A stretch of DNA of 63,724 nt, the filler included, from Desulfonatronovibrionaceae bacterium (GTDB taxonomy: Bacteria; Desulfobacterota; Desulfovibrionia; Desulfovibrionales; Desulfonatronovibrionaceae): NCBI GenBank assembly GCA_046539845.1. It is 4 parts of 4 records of this genome, joined end to end, with 100 filler letters (N's around TTAATTAATTAA, not from the genome) between each part and the next. Parts side by side here need not be neighbours in the genome. Positions count along the whole stretch, not along the records: positions 50,566 to 63,724 come from JBKHGE010000053.1; 3 more parts are not named here. One strand, written 5' to 3'. Positions 16,968-61,947 of the stretch are shown here, one piece after another. The number at the start of each line of letters is the position of its first letter. Position 1 is the stretch's first letter. A model generated the notes under the pieces. It was given only the letters and a program-made list of their open reading frames with translations. It was not told the origin of the DNA and did not search any database. A program made the position numbers and the translations under genes.

Positions 16968-17167
16968 TGTACCGGTCAACAGTTATTTGGACACCAGTGA
17001 CCACTAATTCAGGCTGNNNNNNNNNNNNNNNNNNNNNNNNNNNNNNNNNNNNNNNNNNNNTTAATTAATTAANNNNNNNNNNNNNNNNNNNNNNNNNNNN
17101 NNNNNNNNNNNNNNNNCGACATGCCATACTCCTAATTTGGTGTCCAAACTAATTGTAACCCGGGCCA
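16968..17167 (-). mobile_element. IS3-family insertion sequence (ends only; body lost in the assembly gap)
   Basis: TG...CA termini with imperfect inverted repeats (TGTACCGGTCAACAGTTATTTGGACACCA vs rc TGGCCCGGGTTACAATTAGTTTGGACACCA). CCCT direct repeats at 16964-16967 and 17168-17171. AGGAG plus ATG (17122, minus) points into the gap. Confidence 0.8.
17017..17116. other. Assembly gap with artificial linker
   Basis: N run containing TTAATTAATTAA. Confidence 0.99.
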
Positions 17168-33754: not shown

Positions 33755-33854
33755 NNNNNNNNNNNNNNNNNNNNNNNNNNNNNNNNNNNNNNNNNNNNTT
33801 AATTAATTAANNNNNNNNNNNNNNNNNNNNNNNNNNNNNNNNNNNNNNNNNNNN
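33755..33854. other. Assembly gap with artificial linker
   Basis: N run containing TTAATTAATTAA. Confidence 0.99.
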
Positions 33855-50465: not shown

Positions 50466-50565
50466 NNNNNNNNNNNNNNNNNNNNNNNNNNNNNNNNNNN
50501 NNNNNNNNNTTAATTAATTAANNNNNNNNNNNNNNNNNNNNNNNNNNNNNNNNNNNNNNNNNNNN
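50466..50565. other. Assembly gap with artificial linker
   Basis: N run containing TTAATTAATTAA. Confidence 0.99.
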
Positions 50566-54939: not shown

Positions 54940-55638
54940 TCAACTGGCCCGGGCCAGGCAGATAACATCCACCCGAGCGGCCTTGCCGGCAATGAGTTCT
55001 TTGCTGCAGGCGGCTAAAGTCGCGCCTGTGGTGGCCACGTCATCGACCAAAAGCACGTTTTTGCCCCGGACCTTGTCCTTACGGACCACAAACGCCCCGG
55101 CCAGATTGGACAGCCTTTCCTTTCTGGGTAAAGCGCTTTGCTCCGAAGTTGACCGCTGCTTTTCGAGGGCGCTGCGTTCTACGCGGATTTTTGTCCGCCG
55201 CCCGAGCTGAACGGCCAGCTCCAGGCTCTGATTAAATCCCCGTCTTTTGAGCCGATCCCCCTGCAAGGGGACGGCCGCGATCAGATCCGGCGCGGTCGGG
55301 CACCGAGCCAGATAGGCCTCGTACAAAAGGTATCCCAAGGCTGCGCAGCAGCCGTAATCCGGGCCGAATTTGAATCTGAGCAAGAGGTCGCGCAACAGCC
55401 CGGAGTAGGCCCCGAAAAAGGCAAAAGAGGCCCAGGGCGGCCTTTTTTGCCGGCAACTCCGGCACAGATACGGTTCTTCGGCGCTTAGCTCATAAAGCTC
55501 CCCGCACGCTGGGCAGTAACCAGTCGTGCGCATGCGGAGTCCGTCCCGGCACCGGAGACAAAAAAATCCGGACCCGGAAGCCCCAGCGCCGCAGACAGGG
55601 CACCGGGCGCCGCAAAAACCCTTAAAAGCGGCGAGCAT
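54940..55638 (-). CDS. ComF-family protein (zinc ribbon plus PRTase)
   Basis: CxxC pairs, RGFNQS and LVDDVATTGAT; start uncertain. Confidence 0.88.
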   Translation of the reverse strand: MLAAFKGFCGARCPVCGAGASGSGFFCLRCRDGLRMRTTGYCPACGELYELSAEEPYLCRSCRQKRPPWASFAFFGAYSGLLRDLLLRFKFGPDYGCCAALGYLLYEAYLARCPTAPDLIAAVPLQGDRLKRRGFNQSLELAVQLGRRTKIRVERSALEKQRSTSEQSALPRKERLSNLAGAFVVRKDKVRGKNVLLVDDVATTGATLAACSKELIAGKAARVDVICLARAS

Positions 55639-55657
55639 CCGCCCCGTTACAACGGCC

Positions 55658-56272
55658 CTATTCCCGCCCCCCGGCAACATGTTCTTCAATCCTGTACGCG
55701 TTTTCCCCGCCAACATCTCTAAGATCAGCGCCGGTCTCAACGCCGCGCAGCCCGAGCGTGCGCAGTTTTCTTCCGAAGAGATGCAAAAAATACTTCAAGG
55801 TTATTTCGCTTCCGGTAAACAGAGATCGGCCACGCTTACGCCCGGCCAGTAGCACCGCGCTGGCCACCGGTTTTTCCTCCGCCGCCTGCGCCCAATATCC
55901 GGAGGGATTATTATACACGCTCTGGGAACGGTCAATAAATGCCTTCAAAAGGGCCGGGAGGTGATAGAAATAGATCGGGGCACAGAAGCAGAGTCTGTGG
56001 CTGGATCTAAGCATCTCAAATAACATGCGACAGTCGTCCTCGGCCTGAAACACACACTCCCCGGTCTCGGCGCATTGTCCGCACCCAAGGCAAAAGCGTA
56101 CTCTGTATTCACGCAGATAAACGATCCCCGGACTGAAGCCGCACCTTTCCCAAGCCGCGGCCACCATCAGGGCCGCTCTGTCCGTGGACCCCCCGGAATG
56201 CGGGCTGCAGGCAAAGATTAGATCATCCCCGGCCCTGTTTCCGGGTGAAAAGCGCCCGGATGTGTCCTTCAT
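55658..56272 (-). CDS. Iron-sulfur flavoprotein / flavodoxin family
   Basis: SPHSGGST, CLGCGQC...C and PIYFYHLPA.LK.FIDR. Confidence 0.88.
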   Translation of the reverse strand: MKDTSGRFSPGNRAGDDLIFACSPHSGGSTDRAALMVAAAWERCGFSPGIVYLREYRVRFCLGCGQCAETGECVFQAEDDCRMLFEMLRSSHRLCFCAPIYFYHLPALLKAFIDRSQSVYNNPSGYWAQAAEEKPVASAVLLAGRKRGRSLFTGSEITLKYFLHLFGRKLRTLGLRGVETGADLRDVGGENAYRIEEHVAGGRE

Positions 56273-56468
56273 ATTCCTCGATCTCCAAATCCCATTGCGG
56301 CTCAAGATGCAGGGTGTTTTTCAACTGACTCAGGGCCCCGGGTGCAGCCAGCACTTCCAGACTGTTTCCGCGGGTGAAGCGGAGGTACCAACTTACCTCC
56401 TGCCCCACCCCTCAACACTTATCCTGAAGATCAACCCTTATATCCTGATCCAGTATTCTGCCTTTCAT
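56223..56468 (-). CDS. Candidate 81-aa selenoprotein (Cys-Sec), possibly TusA/SirA-like
   Basis: ATGA overlap with the upstream stop and a GGAGG RBS. MKGRILDQDIRVDLQDKC-TGA-GVGQEVSW... is in frame with the 56408 ORF. A SECIS-like hairpin follows immediately. Confidence 0.65.
56372..56410 (-). promoter_or_regulatory. Putative bacterial SECIS element
   Basis: GGGTGGGGC-A-GGAGGTA-[AGTTGG]-TACCTCC-GCTTCACCC, starting 1 nt after the UGA. Confidence 0.65.
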
Positions 56469-57496
56469 GTCTGTCCCCCCTCCCGGGCAAGGAAATAGAC
56501 TTTACGGTAATCAGCGGCCATCCTCCGGGCAATGAATTTCTTCTTCCCCTCGTTCCAGGCTCGATAGGCGGCCTCGATTCTCTGCCGGTCGTTTCTAAGG
56601 ACCTGAACCGCGACCCCGGGCATATCCCGGAGCTCTGTAGCCAAAAAACCGGTCTGTGTATGTTCGATCTGCTCCGGAATGCCTCCGACTGCGGAGGCAA
56701 CCACGGGCAGCCCGCAGGCCATGGCCTCCAAAACCAGCAAGGGGTGGTTGTCTGCAAACGACGGATAGACCAAAAGCAGACACTTGTGCATAAGCTTTCT
56801 CAATTCCGCATTCGGGACCAGAGGAAGGCATTGTATATCGCCTTTTTTCTCGTGTTTTTGTCCACCCACGAAATAGGCGCGGATCTCCGGGAATTGTCTT
56901 TTTATCTGTCTGTATACATCTACCCAGCGTCCCCCGCCCTTGTAGGCGGCCGACTCGCCGGAATGGGCCGCAAACAGTAAAACCGGCAGGCGCCCCCTAA
57001 AATACGGTTTTCCGGGCTCCCAGGGCACCCCGTTGGGAACAATGCGAATACGCAGCTTGGGCCACACCTGTTTGAGCATATCCCTCATCCAGACTGACGG
57101 AGCGACCAGCACGGGGTCAAGGGAGGCCACCAGCTCTTTTTTCTGGCCAGCGACCCGGTCTGCCCCGGGGAACCCGCGGCCGCAGGAATTACATCCTTTT
57201 TTCCATTGAACGCAGTCAAGGGGGAATGCGCACCCCCCGGTAAAAAGAGCACAGTCGTGGGCTGTTATGACCAGAGGAGAGGCTTTGTCCAGCCCGGACA
57301 TAAGCCCAACCCAATCCCCGGAGGAGTGAAGGTGGAGCACGTCGCCCGGCCCGGCCTCAGCCAGTCCCTGCGGCCCCGGTCCGGAGACTTCCCACACATG
57401 TCTGTACTCGGCCCCGGAAGTATACCGGATCAGATACTTGGCTACTGCAGCAGCCCCTCCCCCCTCCTGTACATAGCTGTAATGCCAGACGCGCAT
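56465..57496 (-). CDS. Glycosyltransferase family 4
   Basis: HDCALFTGGC and YPSFADNHPLLVLEAMACGLPVVAS.VGGIPE. Confidence 0.9.
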   Translation of the reverse strand: MRVWHYSYVQEGGGAAAVAKYLIRYTSGAEYRHVWEVSGPGPQGLAEAGPGDVLHLHSSGDWVGLMSGLDKASPLVITAHDCALFTGGCAFPLDCVQWKKGCNSCGRGFPGADRVAGQKKELVASLDPVLVAPSVWMRDMLKQVWPKLRIRIVPNGVPWEPGKPYFRGRLPVLLFAAHSGESAAYKGGGRWVDVYRQIKRQFPEIRAYFVGGQKHEKKGDIQCLPLVPNAELRKLMHKCLLLVYPSFADNHPLLVLEAMACGLPVVASAVGGIPEQIEHTQTGFLATELRDMPGVAVQVLRNDRQRIEAAYRAWNEGKKKFIARRMAADYRKVYFLAREGGQT

Positions 57497-57505
57497 ACGA
57501 AACTG

Positions 57506-58138
57506 TCAGGGGTGCCAGACCCGGGCAAAAAACGGATTGTGCAGCTCCTCGTCCCGCACCCGGGTTTCCGGGCCGTGCCCCGGATACACCATGGTCTCCG
57601 GGGGCAGGGTAAATATCTTCTCCCGGGCGGATTTAATGAGCAGGTCCTGATCCCCCCCGGGGAAATCAGTCCGGCCTATAGAGCGATAAAACAGCAGATC
57701 CCCGGAAAAAACAGCCCCGGCCTCAGGGAAATAAAAGGACAGGCTGCCCGGGCTGTGGCCGGGGGTGGCCAAAACATTACATATATTTCCGGCAAATTCG
57801 TACTCTCCGGGGGAAAGGTCCTCGTATTCGAACCCGGGAGTTCGGGGGAAGCCCATGAATCCACCTCCGCCCACCTCTGCGTCCAGAAGGAACCCGTCCG
57901 CGGACGAGGCCAGAATGCGGGCGGAAAACTCCCGGGCCAGACCGGCATTGCCCTGGATATGATCGAAATGCAGGTGGGTGTTCAGGACCGCCTGCAGGGC
58001 AAGGCCCCTGGCCCGCAGAAAATCCACCACCTCAGTCGGGTCCCCGCCCGGATCGATCACCACGGCAATGGAGCCGTTGTGGACCAAAAAGCAATTGGTC
58101 TCCAGGGGCCCCAGGGCAAACGTCTTGATGCTTATCAT
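57506..58138 (-). CDS. MBL-fold metallo-hydrolase
   Basis: THLHFDH, TPGHSPG, GDLLF and PGHG. Confidence 0.92.
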   Translation of the reverse strand: MISIKTFALGPLETNCFLVHNGSIAVVIDPGGDPTEVVDFLRARGLALQAVLNTHLHFDHIQGNAGLAREFSARILASSADGFLLDAEVGGGGFMGFPRTPGFEYEDLSPGEYEFAGNICNVLATPGHSPGSLSFYFPEAGAVFSGDLLFYRSIGRTDFPGGDQDLLIKSAREKIFTLPPETMVYPGHGPETRVRDEELHNPFFARVWHP

Positions 58139-58140
58139 TA

Positions 58141-58644
58141 TCAGTCCTCCAGCATGAGTTCACTAAGCTCCCTGCGGTTCGAACCGCCCTCCCCTTCCGG
58201 GTGGCCCAAGGCCAATACCGCCATCAGCCCCAGCTCGGAATTGTTCGTCCCCAGGACTTCATGTACCCGGTCTTCCCGGTTAAGGATTTCTCCGAGCCAG
58301 ACCGCCCCCAGACCCAATCCGTGCGCGGCCAGAAGCATATTCTGAATACAGGCCCCGACTCCCTGATAATCCTTGACCGGACTGTACATTGCTTCTTTGG
58401 CCAGAAAGACAACAATCAAAATATCGGCCGCTAAGACCACGTGGCTGTACTTTGTACATCCCTGCAGCCCATCTTTGCGGGGATCGTCACGGTTCACGAC
58501 CAAAAAGCGCCACGGCTGATTGTTCAGTCCGCTCGGGGCCCAGCGCCCGCAGTCCAGAATCCTGGCCACATGTTCCCGATCCACTTTCTGACCGGTAAAT
58601 CTACGGATGCTCCTCCTGTTGTACAAGGCGTCAAAGAGTTCCAA
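58141..58644 (-). CDS. Nitroreductase family
   Basis: RRSIR.F, APSGLNNQPW and QNMLLAAH.LGLG; TTG start after AGGAGG. Confidence 0.92.
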   Translation of the reverse strand: MELFDALYNRRSIRRFTGQKVDREHVARILDCGRWAPSGLNNQPWRFLVVNRDDPRKDGLQGCTKYSHVVLAADILIVVFLAKEAMYSPVKDYQGVGACIQNMLLAAHGLGLGAVWLGEILNREDRVHEVLGTNNSELGLMAVLALGHPEGEGGSNRRELSELMLED

Positions 58645-58918
58645 GGTGCCTCCTGTTTTTAATCCATTGGCTTTAAACGTCTTTTTTCGCGGCCCAAGCT
58701 TGCCGGGACAAAATACCGACCAAACTTTTTTTGATTCGGACCGCTTCAAACCTCAAAAGACAGTTAATTTTCAATTATTCTGGACAAAGCCACCCATTGT
58801 AGGGCAGATAACACTACCAGCGCCCCGGATCCGGACCTTCAGCCTGGCCCGGTCAGCGGGCTACAGACACAGAAGTCCCCGAACAACTTCAAGCCGGAAA
58901 AATCTCTGTGAGCAGGTA

Positions 58919-61312
58919 ATGCAAAACATATCCGATCCCACGGCAATTCTCAAGCGCGAGGACCTGATCGCTATGGAAGGTCCCTTATACGCCACTCTCG
59001 CCCCCTTTTTCCCCGGAATGAGCTTAAGCCTGTTCTTCCCCCCCAAGGTGCCGGAAAACATGCGTACCGAACACGGATACACCATCCTGGAAGAAAAGGA
59101 CAGGCTCCTCTTACCCTTGGTCCAGAACAATACCCTGCTGGGCATTATGGTGGCCAGAAGGACCAAGGATCAAAGTACAGAAATGCCAAAGACCGAGGTG
59201 CTGACCCCGGTCCTGGACCTGTGCCTGGAGAATCTACGTCTGTACAAGGCAAAGAGGACCGACCCGCTCACCGAATTGTATAACCGGGGCACGTTTTTGG
59301 ATATCGCCGCCCGGGACATCGAACAGATATGCTCCGGACTGGAATCCGGTGCCAGTGCCTGGCCGGAAAGCACATTCAAGGCCATGTTCAGCGTAATGGT
59401 GGTCAAGGTGGACAACCTGCGGCACATAAGCAGCCGCTATGGATTCGCCCTAAGCGACCGGGTCCTGCAACAGGCCGCGGGATGCGTTAAACAGGCCGCA
59501 CCCGACCACGCTGTGGCCGCCCGCCTGGAAGGCGACGACGAAATCGCCCTGCTTTTGTCTAACACCAACCACCGGGCGGGGAAACAACTGGCCCGGGACA
59601 TCGCGGCCAAAGTAGCCGGCATCGAGCTCAGGACGCCGCTTACCCGGGAGAGGGTGGTGCTGTCCGTCAGCGCCGGCCTGGCCTCTTTTCCCCAGGACAT
59701 AGACGGACCCGGCGGAGGAAACGCCCCGCTGGACACGGCCAGAAACATCCTGGAAAAAGCCAGGACCGCCCGCAGGTATGCAGCCGGGCTGAACCGCCCT
59801 TTCTGCGCCTTCAGTCGTATCCTGCGCTCCGGAGGCAGGATCATTGAACCTTTGCCTCTGGGGCGGGTATTGGTTGATGTGGGCAGATTCGCCGGTGCCC
59901 GGGAAGGACAGCGCTTTGTGGTTACTTCGGACAGCTACGGGACCGGAGGCGGAGATGCCCCGGAGCGCCCTTTTCTGCCCAAAGCGGAGATCGTGCTCGT
60001 GGACGTCCGGGACCGAGAGGCCATGGGAGAAGTACTCCAGTTAAACGATCCTGCCTGGCCCATAGCCAGCGGCGACACCTTGGACCTGCTTCCCAGGGAC
60101 CGGGAGCTGCAGATAAGCGACGGGCAGAAAGAAAGCAGGTCCAATCCCAGCCGCGACCCTTTGACCGGCCTATTCACCCACCGCGATTTTCTGCATTTCT
60201 GGGACCGGATAAAAAACGAACCCGAAACATTTTCTTTGCTTATCATCCGTCTGGGAGAGAACGGAATGGTTCGGGGACCGGAATACAGCGAGAACCAGGA
60301 GCTGAAAAAAATTGCGGAAAGGACTTCCGAGCACCTGCCCCAGAACAGCGTGGGCGGGAGATATGGATCCGGCTCCCTTATTTTCTTTATCCCCGGGATG
60401 CGGCCTGAAGATATTTACCCCTCCTGTTTGCGCATGGAGGAAATCTGCCGCAAGGAGTTGGGAATGCACTCCTGCATGGGTATTGCCGGATACCCTTTTT
60501 TGGATCACTCCCGCTCTGCAGTCATTCGCAATGTACACAAGGCCCTTGAGCACGCTTTGATGCTTTCTCCTCCCCGGGTGGCAGTGCTGGACAGCCTATC
60601 CTTCAATATCAGCGCGGACCGATTCTTTGCCGAAGGCGATCTGTTCTCGGCCCTGGAGGAATACAAGACATCCCTCACCCTGGATGCAAATAACCACCTG
60701 GCCCGTAATTCCCTGGGGATATGCTATGCCAGACTGGATATGCTCCCGGAGGCAAGCTCCTGTTTCCGGGAGACTGTTTCCAGGGCGCCGGAGGACAGCA
60801 TAGCCCTGTACAATCTGGGCTGCGTCTGCATGCGGCTGAACGAAACAGACGAGGCCCAAAAGGCCTTTGAAAAGGTACTGGCCGCAGATCCACAACAGGT
60901 GTTCTGCCTGTTCAGACTGGGGCTGCTGGCCGAGGGGCGGGGCGAGCTGGACCGAGCGGCTGCCTATTATCAAAAGGCAAAAGACAGCGAACAGGGAAAG
61001 ACAATAGCTCCCAGGCATTTGGCCCGAGTGGCCTTTAAAAAGGGCGACCTGGAGACCGCCCGGGACCTGCTGCATCAAGCCCTGGTTACCTATCCCCGCG
61101 ACCCGCATTCTTTGCATCTGCTGGCCCGGATATATCTCCAGTCCGGAGACGATCCGGAAATGGCCGAGATGCTGGCCCGGCAAAGCGCAAGCCTGGCCCC
61201 GGACAGCCGCGAATATCTGCTCACCCTGAGCCGGGCACTTGAGGCCCAGGGCAAAAAAGAAGAGAGCGAGCTGGCCCAGGCCAGGGCGCAAAGCCTGCAT
61301 GCCCCCGGCTGA
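58919..61312 (+). CDS. Tandem degenerate GGDEF-domain protein with C-terminal TPRs
   Basis: DPLTEL.N...RLEGDDE and DPLTGL...RYGSGS, followed by TPR repeats. Confidence 0.85.
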   Translation: MQNISDPTAILKREDLIAMEGPLYATLAPFFPGMSLSLFFPPKVPENMRTEHGYTILEEKDRLLLPLVQNNTLLGIMVARRTKDQSTEMPKTEVLTPVLDLCLENLRLYKAKRTDPLTELYNRGTFLDIAARDIEQICSGLESGASAWPESTFKAMFSVMVVKVDNLRHISSRYGFALSDRVLQQAAGCVKQAAPDHAVAARLEGDDEIALLLSNTNHRAGKQLARDIAAKVAGIELRTPLTRERVVLSVSAGLASFPQDIDGPGGGNAPLDTARNILEKARTARRYAAGLNRPFCAFSRILRSGGRIIEPLPLGRVLVDVGRFAGAREGQRFVVTSDSYGTGGGDAPERPFLPKAEIVLVDVRDREAMGEVLQLNDPAWPIASGDTLDLLPRDRELQISDGQKESRSNPSRDPLTGLFTHRDFLHFWDRIKNEPETFSLLIIRLGENGMVRGPEYSENQELKKIAERTSEHLPQNSVGGRYGSGSLIFFIPGMRPEDIYPSCLRMEEICRKELGMHSCMGIAGYPFLDHSRSAVIRNVHKALEHALMLSPPRVAVLDSLSFNISADRFFAEGDLFSALEEYKTSLTLDANNHLARNSLGICYARLDMLPEASSCFRETVSRAPEDSIALYNLGCVCMRLNETDEAQKAFEKVLAADPQQVFCLFRLGLLAEGRGELDRAAAYYQKAKDSEQGKTIAPRHLARVAFKKGDLETARDLLHQALVTYPRDPHSLHLLARIYLQSGDDPEMAEMLARQSASLAPDSREYLLTLSRALEAQGKKEESELAQARAQSLHAPG

Positions 61313-61725: not shown

Positions 61726-61947
61726 TCATCCTGGTGTGCAGGAACTCCTTGCGGCCTTTTTTATGCGGCGCATGAATTCCTCCCGGTCCAGACCGTATTT
61801 GCGGATGACCTCAGCCAGGGTATCGAACAGAGAACTGCAGCAGATGCACTCCCCGGCCTGGCCGTCATAGGCCTTAAGGACCGGTTCCGTTTCCCTGTAG
61901 CTGGATATAACTTCCAGAACAGTCATCTCCGGATGGATATCGTCCAT
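61726..61947 (-). CDS. Small hypothetical protein (DUF1858-like)
   Basis: I.PEMTVLEVI..Y.ETE.V, CICC.SLFDTL and YGLD. Confidence 0.7.
   Translation of the reverse strand: MDDIHPEMTVLEVISSYRETEPVLKAYDGQAGECICCSSLFDTLAEVIRKYGLDREEFMRRIKKAARSSCTPG

Follow-up and report, generated by a model that had tools for sequence, protein, structure and literature searches.

Does the genome of a Desulfonatronovibrionaceae bacterium hold an overlooked selenoprotein gene, and if so, what might its product do? The question is raised by a short reading frame, interrupted by an in-frame TGA, on the minus strand of a 63,724-nt stretch of DNA (the window, along the whole length of which positions are counted). 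The window joins four contigs of assembly GCA_046539845.1 (C42, C43, C44, and C53) with runs of N at 17017-17116, 33755-33854, and 50466-50565, across which gene order is artificial; the locus lies within contig C53 (JBKHGE010000053.1), and the source genome is 98.9% complete. We conclude that 56468-56223 is almost certainly a real, unannotated selenoprotein gene, in which incorporation of selenocysteine (Sec) is predicted from sequence. As the original prediction described, its ATG (56468-56466) shares ATGA with the stop of a glycosyltransferase gene (TGA 56467-56465) and is preceded by a GGAGG ribosome-binding site. The frame runs for 18 codons, of which TGT is the last, reaches the TGA at 56414-56412, continues for 62 codons, and ends at a stop TGA at 56225-56223, giving the expected read-through protein of 81 aa. 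Most homologues likewise have a purine-rich site, together with a start 9-20 codons upstream of the TGA. A scan for promoters and terminators returned chance level.

The read-through protein proved to be conserved beyond chance, and on both sides of the TGA. A search with the single protein matched 48/101 relatives, and a profile of 30 Sec-family sequences matched 207 of 401 genomes of at least 90% completeness, a set that we label Desulfovibrionales from its named records (in at least one genome, G116, the match comes through a Cys paralog only). TGA occupies the Sec codon in all 150 of the profile matches listed, 70 further ones being unlisted, and in all 67 loci that we inspected, a non-random sample drawn from the single-protein and profile matches. 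It is likewise present in 80/80 loci fetched from the 108 stretches of GTDB genomes that fit a DNA pattern, although this pattern also permitted TGC or TGT. Among the 67 loci, TAA or TAG was never substituted for it, and the terminal stops vary (TGA 43, TAA 12, and TAG 12). Upstream of the TGA, conserved Asp, Arg, and Cys residues are encoded with synonymous changes: Asp at -6 is found in 66/67 loci (GAT 47 and GAC 19) and Cys at -1 also in 66/67 (TGC 49 and TGT 17). Downstream, 66/67 loci extend 58-78 codons beyond the UGA, the exception being a broken copy in genome G381. That locus, L096 (G381:C22), and L170 have an early stop or frameshift past the UGA and are pseudogenes or assembly errors; one Sec member, L095, has Gly-Sec in place of Cys-Sec.

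Where their names are specific, the 80 fetched loci all belong to Desulfovibrionales, and the gene occurs in Pseudodesulfovibrio, Solidesulfovibrio, Desulfomicrobium, Nitratidesulfovibrio, Maridesulfovibrio, Desulfonatronovibrio, and other genera. It was not found in two families (f2, 0/19; f5, 0/8) and one genus (g16, 0/73), most of whose genomes have selA; the close profile had no match outside Desulfovibrionales in a 301-genome sample of the phylum. A search of viral contigs found no match. The Sec machinery of the host, the presence of which had been left to confirm, is complete: tRNA-Sec, selA, and selB were found in the source genome, together with a selD that has an internal TGA of its own. 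Across the order, selA was found in 363/401 genomes and, on lists compared by hand, in 205/207 of those that match the Sec profile, the other two carrying a TGA-containing selD.

Homologues have either TGA or Cys at the Sec position throughout. A Cys paralog without a stop occurs in 94/401 genomes, all of one family, 91 of which also match the Sec gene, and a comparison of profiles matches it to the Sec family at 98.7%. The motif x-C-G-[LMI]-[LIVMT]-P, with Cys at the Sec position, is present in 120/120 paralogs listed, and the residue ahead of it is Cys in 61 and another in 59; since the one is invariant and the other variable, it is the Sec column, and not that of Cys18, that is the invariant position. 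These paralogs (proteins P0075-P0194; loci L099:1474-1722 (-), L100, L098, and L257-L263) are unannotated, those with a name being called hypothetical; they have a C-terminal tail such as LDTLDY, no Pfam match, and variable neighbours. L258 lies directly after what is presumably an mnmE-like gene.

An apparent natural Sec-to-Cys conversion is provided by genome G716, 85% complete in 30 contigs, in which no selA, selB, or selD was found. Its ortholog, L274 (G716:C7:10374-10589), has C-P-C, with an inserted proline, in place of C-U, and retains the usual order of a metallo-beta-lactamase (MBL)-fold gene, the gene itself, a flavoprotein gene, and comF. The hairpin is weaker than in two congeners (-13 vs -22 to -24 kcal/mol), and the ortholog nests inside the Sec clade in a tree of 81 columns, the deeper forks of which are unsure because of this small number of columns and the long branches. 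The pattern is the one expected of such a conversion, and it comes from a single, incomplete genome, the only Sec-free ortholog found, which counts against leaning on it heavily.

A hairpin resembling a Sec insertion sequence (SECIS) starts one base past the UGA, with the geometry first reported for it: 39 nt, a lower stem of 9 bp (two of them G-U), an A bulge, a 7-bp upper stem, and an AGUUGG loop (56393-56388) 18 nt after the UGA. SelB-tRNA(Sec) is predicted to bind it and to insert Sec at residue 19. The minimum free energy in the window is -30 kcal/mol (z -3.64), a stability reached by 0/200 shuffles. In the 67 inspected loci, the median z is -1.45 for the hairpin region (47 loci below -1) and 0.0 for a downstream control region (6 below -1). 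Codon choice is skewed within the hairpin, with GAG 49 to GAA 1 for Glu(+5) vs 166 to 158 elsewhere, AGT in 28/28 for Ser(+7) vs 14/135, and CTC in 47/65 for Leu vs 40/326; judging from these counts, which include non-independent kin, the hairpin codons are constrained beyond what the protein sequence needs. The conserved core consists of the upper stem (56400-56394 with 56387-56381) and the loop, the G of which is kept in at least 90% of loci. Conservation and covariation of the hairpin, proposed as a check, therefore hold for these parts, with modest covariation (pairing holds at 76% in an upper stem of 8 pairs, where 33 changes are both-sided, and 0/500 shuffles reach this), and do not hold for the long lower stem, which varies across the family. 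Two results speak against covariation: controls slid by -2 and +2 score as high as the upper stem, and RNAalifold returned 0 consensus pairs on the family alignment. Both may arise because the stem of one clade pairs in a shifted register, with the loop G unchanged. An Rfam scan at the window locus found nothing.

What kind of protein does the gene encode? Its AlphaFold2 model (predicted local distance difference test score, 88.9) has a beta-alpha-beta-alpha-beta-beta order, and among the 48,161 chains compared with it only three reached Z>=8, all of the TusA family: SirA-like 3hz7 (DSY4693; Z 9.9, root-mean-square deviation [rmsd] 1.9 A over 69 residues), YeeD 8j4c chain B (Z 9.2, rmsd 2.7 A), and E. 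coli TusA 3lvj chain C (Z 8.7, rmsd 2.4 A). For the paralog model, 3hz7 ranks first, an Smr domain second, and YeeD and TusA follow. Sec19 immediately precedes helix 1, at the position of the catalytic Cys of TusA and YeeD in a D-x5-C register, so that the VDLxxxCU stretch first likened to a TusA motif keeps the spacing of that motif, with the refinement that Sec19, rather than Cys18, falls in the catalytic column. The paralog profile matches a profile of 24 TusA proteins of these genomes at 79.6% (E 1.5e-5), Cys on Cys. With TusA/SirA, the Sec protein shares a length of ~75-80 aa, the fold, and a D-x5-chalcogen residue before helix 1; it differs in having Sec for Cys and a vicinal Cys ahead, with 16-19% identity. 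It also has a basic C-terminus and a conserved W-x-L-R in helix 1. According to the model, the protein is TusA-like in architecture yet outside formal PF01206 membership. The TusA/SirA likeness claimed at the outset thus stands at the level of fold and by way of the Cys paralog, and falls as regards PF01206, with no CPxP and no hidden Markov model match: the Pfam cut-off was reached by 0/30 Sec members and 0/4 paralog or ortholog rows. The Sec family forms a clade of its own, distinct from the TusA proteins that these genomes also encode, and a PF01206 search of the source genome found two other genes, the Sec gene not being among them.

Several results weigh against kinship with TusA. The Smr domain comes next in structure comparison (Z 7.9 for the Sec model and 8.8 for the paralog model), close enough to TusA to mark the fold as a common one, and Foldseek gave no match at E<=0.001, with IF3-C and SpoVS ranked at the top. 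The joint profile of Sec proteins and paralogs (A4) matches TusA at 24.9%, the Sec family alone (A1) at 0.9%, and the sister family described below at 0.5%. The CPxP motif is absent from the Sec family, which has U-[G/H]-[V/L]-G, the paralogs having C-G-[L/M]-[I/V]-P. Finally, the genome already owns two ordinary TusA-family genes, L037 (G000:C5:31851-32057) and L038 (G000:C55:6191-6382); one of the pair follows what we take to be a YeeE/YedE-like membrane gene, and the other presumably encodes the N-terminal part, as one domain, of a longer protein of YedF-like type.

The family reaches beyond the order. A broader profile found two weak TGA-containing matches among 251 genomes, both with D-x4-C-U and a hairpin, and sister-type metagenome loci have TGA in 16/16 cases, again with a tight hairpin. 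This sister branch, which matches the Sec family at 94.4% between profiles, bears the motif D-[YHS]-R-x-D-C-U (L286:1498-1737, L288:1498-1752, and L291-L306). In 5/6 scanned loci of this branch, a cobalamin riboswitch follows closely on the Sec gene, which it cannot control from that downstream position; the sister genes also precede cbiK and are divergent from DUF4198. The Desulfovibrionales Sec branch, the Cys paralog branch, and this sister Sec branch outside the order make up an unmodelled family.

That the family is undescribed, as was first supposed, agrees with the databases and literature we searched. Neither the protein nor the alignments had a meaningful match in Pfam or NCBIfam, the best E for 44 members scanned against the June 2026 NCBIfam being 0.03, from one of them. 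PDB sequence matches to a PHR1 coiled coil (E 0.024) and to importin repeats were rejected as spurious, and a further PDB search had no match. No TusA/SirA/PF01206 family is among the 119 prokaryotic selenoprotein families in Table 1 of PMC13188914 (May 2026), in the accessible text of which the words TusA, SirA, and YedF were not found; neither TusA/SirA nor any of five motifs occurs in the portions available of PMC12013277 and of four supplements to it. The idea of a published "SirA-like selenoprotein" was not borne out: PMC2432076, as far as its available passages go, concerns Cys-type SirA-like proteins tied to selD by neighbourhood and not described there as selenoproteins. We found no published description of a Sec TusA-fold family in a search from which subscription journals were largely absent, and D. 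vulgaris locus tags led to no papers either. Annotation has missed the gene, as had been suspected, and databases carry fragments that begin past the TGA. Thus, 68/71 representative proteins start after the UGA, giving entries of 55-70 aa without the active site, and a homologous-protein search with the full 81-aa protein had as its sole match the window gene's own entry, a 61-aa fragment of this kind.

Other protein groups resemble the family in part. The CU-motif selenoproteins (HgcA, SaoL/SaoB/SaoC, MbdU, KCU-star, and the Csac_0668 family) have a vicinal Cys-Sec and are likewise truncated at the UGA in databases, but they differ in length and context, and the 44 members scanned of the present family have no meaningful NCBIfam match. 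In the DsrE-like UxxC proteins, rhodanese forms 1-5, and YeeE/YedE (PMC13188914, Table 1), a sulfur-handling protein likewise has Sec where its catalytic Cys would stand, whereas the folds differ. The YeeD (TsuB) and YedF types, SirA-like proteins tied to the uptake of thiosulfate or to SelD (PMC11073785; PMC2432076), share the fold and a plausible sulfur or selenium role, but they are Cys proteins with CPxP beside yeeE or selD, neither of which the Sec gene adjoins.

We give about an even chance to the reading that the Sec protein is a sulfur/selenium (chalcogen) carrier in which Cys18 acts as a resolving residue. Selenium is the stronger nucleophile, and Sec at the position of the TusA Cys points to the same chemistry carried out with it. 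TusA-family proteins work via a Cys before helix 1 that bears a persulfide or thiosulfonate, according to the accessible text of PMC11073785. In the Sec protein, the selenolate of Sec19 would take sulfane sulfur or selenium, as Se-S or Se-Se, from a donor such as a cysteine desulfurase, thiosulfate or polysulfide, or a selenium source. The bound chalcogen would then be handed to an acceptor by what is expected to be a cytoplasmic protein, and Cys18 may resolve Sec19 by forming a selenenylsulfide with it, which reductants of the cell would reopen. The vicinal Cys is conserved, and is kept as C-P-C upon Sec loss, which suggests the resolving role; one relocated Sec gene, co-directional after a MoeA-PBP gene, was also counted in favour of a carrier. 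A broader proposal, a Desulfobacterota-wide superfamily of TusA-fold selenoproteins whose Cys-Sec would make them self-resolving selenium/sulfur carriers, serving either as the missing donor or buffer of selenium in vivo or as a selenium-accelerated source of sulfur for the assembly of Mo/W, Co/Ni, or Fe-S cofactors, seems to us rather doubtful.

The genes around the locus are listed with its own features in Table 1. The nitroreductase-MBL-GT4-flavoprotein-ComF cluster noted from the start is present in the window, and its GT4 member is a lineage-specific insertion, so that a link between GT4 and the Sec gene was rejected. (Neighbours were counted up to 3 kb away from each of 80 named loci, 64 of which have full flanks.) The downstream flavoprotein we take to be iron-sulfur-flavoprotein-like; its nearest in-frame ATG (56272) falls inside the Sec gene, for an overlap of 50 nt (56272-56223), with overlaps of 47-53 nt in two congeners, and such overlaps are commonly 4-14 nt elsewhere, shorter than the window's.

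Table 1. Predicted selenoprotein gene of the window, its elements, and the surrounding cluster
Feature	Position	Strand	Basis or remark
TusA-fold selenoprotein gene (predicted), 81 aa, Cys18-Sec19	56223..56468	-	Reading frame, family matches, fold model
In-frame TGA read as Sec19, column of TusA catalytic Cys	56412..56414	-	TGA in 67/67 and 80/80 loci; Cys in 120/120 paralogs; column alignment
Cys18 codon TGT, vicinal to Sec	56415..56417	-	Cys in 66/67 loci (TGC 49, TGT 17)
GGAGG ribosome-binding site, 10 nt before ATG, within 3' end of GT4 gene	56479..56483	-	Sequence
SECIS-like hairpin, 39 nt	56372..56410	-	z -3.64; covariation; codon constraint; RNAalifold negative
Flavodoxin-fold FMN reductase, CxxCxxC..C motif, downstream	55658..56272	-	Pfam FMN_red; motif in 39/39; 59/80 loci; start probable
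ComF-family protein, last cluster gene	54940..55740	-	52/80 loci; start provisional
GT4 glycosyltransferase, between MBL and Sec genes	56465..57496	-	4/80 loci
MBL-fold hydrolase (glyoxalase II-like), usual upstream neighbour	57506..58138	-	55/80 loci
Nitroreductase-family flavoprotein, first cluster gene	58141..58749	-	32/80 loci; start provisional

This neighbourhood does not strengthen the case for a carrier. In all five of the non-carrier genomes examined, the MBL gene is immediately followed by the flavoprotein gene (three) or by comF (two), which indicates that the Sec gene was cleanly lost and that the cluster is independent of it; since the MBL-flavoprotein-comF operon survives that loss, it says little on function. 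Nor was a desulfurase, selD, yeeE, rhodanese, or dsrE gene recognised as a conserved neighbour among the 80 named loci. The Sec gene lies away from the flavoprotein in 15/64 loci with full flanks, relocated copies following MoeA-PBP, ZIP, and GDT1 genes and some being convergent with selB-Usp. Proximity to selA/selB in genus g49 was considered and set aside as weak, the Sec gene lying on the opposite strand, ~1.3 kb beyond selB and on the far side of a Usp gene. Loci of the Solidesulfovibrio type (L155, L164, L187, L150, and L216) have the Sec gene co-directional after MoeA-PBP, in some cases ZIP, and a short GDT1 gene. Gene context leaves the pathway unfixed, with a weak hint of redox or metallocofactor work. 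Two other window genes may be mentioned: a large GGDEF and TPR protein (58607-61312, +), divergent from the cluster, has a homologue within 3 kb in 24/80 loci, and a small DUF1858/hybrid-cluster-associated protein (61726-61947, -) is of the all-Cys form, C-I-C-C, of a catalogued selenoprotein family (CxxU).

The hint of redox work corresponds to an alternative that we consider unlikely: Cys18-Sec19 would cycle between selenolate/thiol and selenenylsulfide, passing electrons from the Fe-S flavoprotein or the nitroreductase to peroxides, polysulfides, or oxidised thiols, much as the Cys-Sec C-terminus of mammalian thioredoxin reductase provides an analogue. The near-invariance of Cys18 (66/67 loci) and the retention of both chalcogens as C-P-C upon Sec loss fit such a shuttle, as does the flavoprotein, the commonest neighbour (59/80), whose start often overlaps the Sec gene's stop and whose Cys motif is intact in 39/39; but the flavoprotein persists where the Sec gene is absent, about a quarter of loci have the two apart, 59/120 paralogs make do with a single Cys, and L095 has Gly-Sec. 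A complex prediction for the G716 C-P-C ortholog and its neighbouring flavoprotein scored 0.00 and was counted neither way.

Metal binding or metallocofactor assembly, in which Cys-Sec would chelate Co, Ni, Mo/W, Zn, or Hg for delivery or sensing, strikes us as improbable. The rare CU motif has been linked to heavy-metal interaction, at least in the part available of Haft and Gwadz (bioRxiv 2022.07.06.499078), and both the relocated copies after MoeA-PBP, ZIP, and GDT1 and the sister genes beside a cobalamin riboswitch and cbiK lend themselves to this explanation. However, the main context holds no metal gene, the riboswitch is on the wrong side of the Sec gene, alignment A4 shows no further evident conserved ligand residue, and each context may be one inherited event.

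A regulatory role is far less probable than either: as a selenium-sensing leader, the frame would couple translation of the flavoprotein and comF genes to selenium supply through UGA read-through, its product being secondary. It does overlap or abut both neighbours in many loci, but a leader is hard to reconcile with a product that forms a domain and conserves Trp and Arg well away from the UGA, or with the existence of relocated copies, stand-alone Cys paralogs, and a retained Sec-free ortholog. Similarly remote is nucleic-acid binding by a protein of the IF3-C/Smr/Alba fold class in which Sec would serve as the redox switch; these folds score just below TusA, and the basic C-terminus and the W-x-L-R of helix 1 would suit it, but the D-x5-(C/U) register fits TusA, and identities to Smr, IF3, and Alba are 6-20%. 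That the TGA is a true stop, the real gene being the annotated 61-aa frame from a GTG two codons on, can hardly be right even with 68/71 representative proteins beginning after the TGA, for the +2 codon is GTG or TTG in only 37/67 loci, the fragment would lack strand 1 of the fold, the codon is never TAA or TAG, and Cys homologues run uninterrupted through the position.

A selenoprotein of the TusA fold would be an addition to the prokaryotic selenoproteome, from a gene hidden in about half of the searched Desulfovibrionales genomes, in organisms relevant to the sulfur cycle, corrosion, and mercury methylation. Its natural Sec, Cys-Cys, single-Cys, and C-P-C forms, all on one 80-residue scaffold, constitute a series for examining the role of selenium in persulfide-carrier chemistry. 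Which donor supplies SelD with selenium in vivo is described as incompletely known in the accessible text of PMC13188914; we found no link to SelD here, and a Sec-bearing carrier is nonetheless a candidate for that donor. If the superfamily proposal were true, these selenium/sulfur carriers would tie the sulfur trafficking of sulfate reducers directly to selenium supply.
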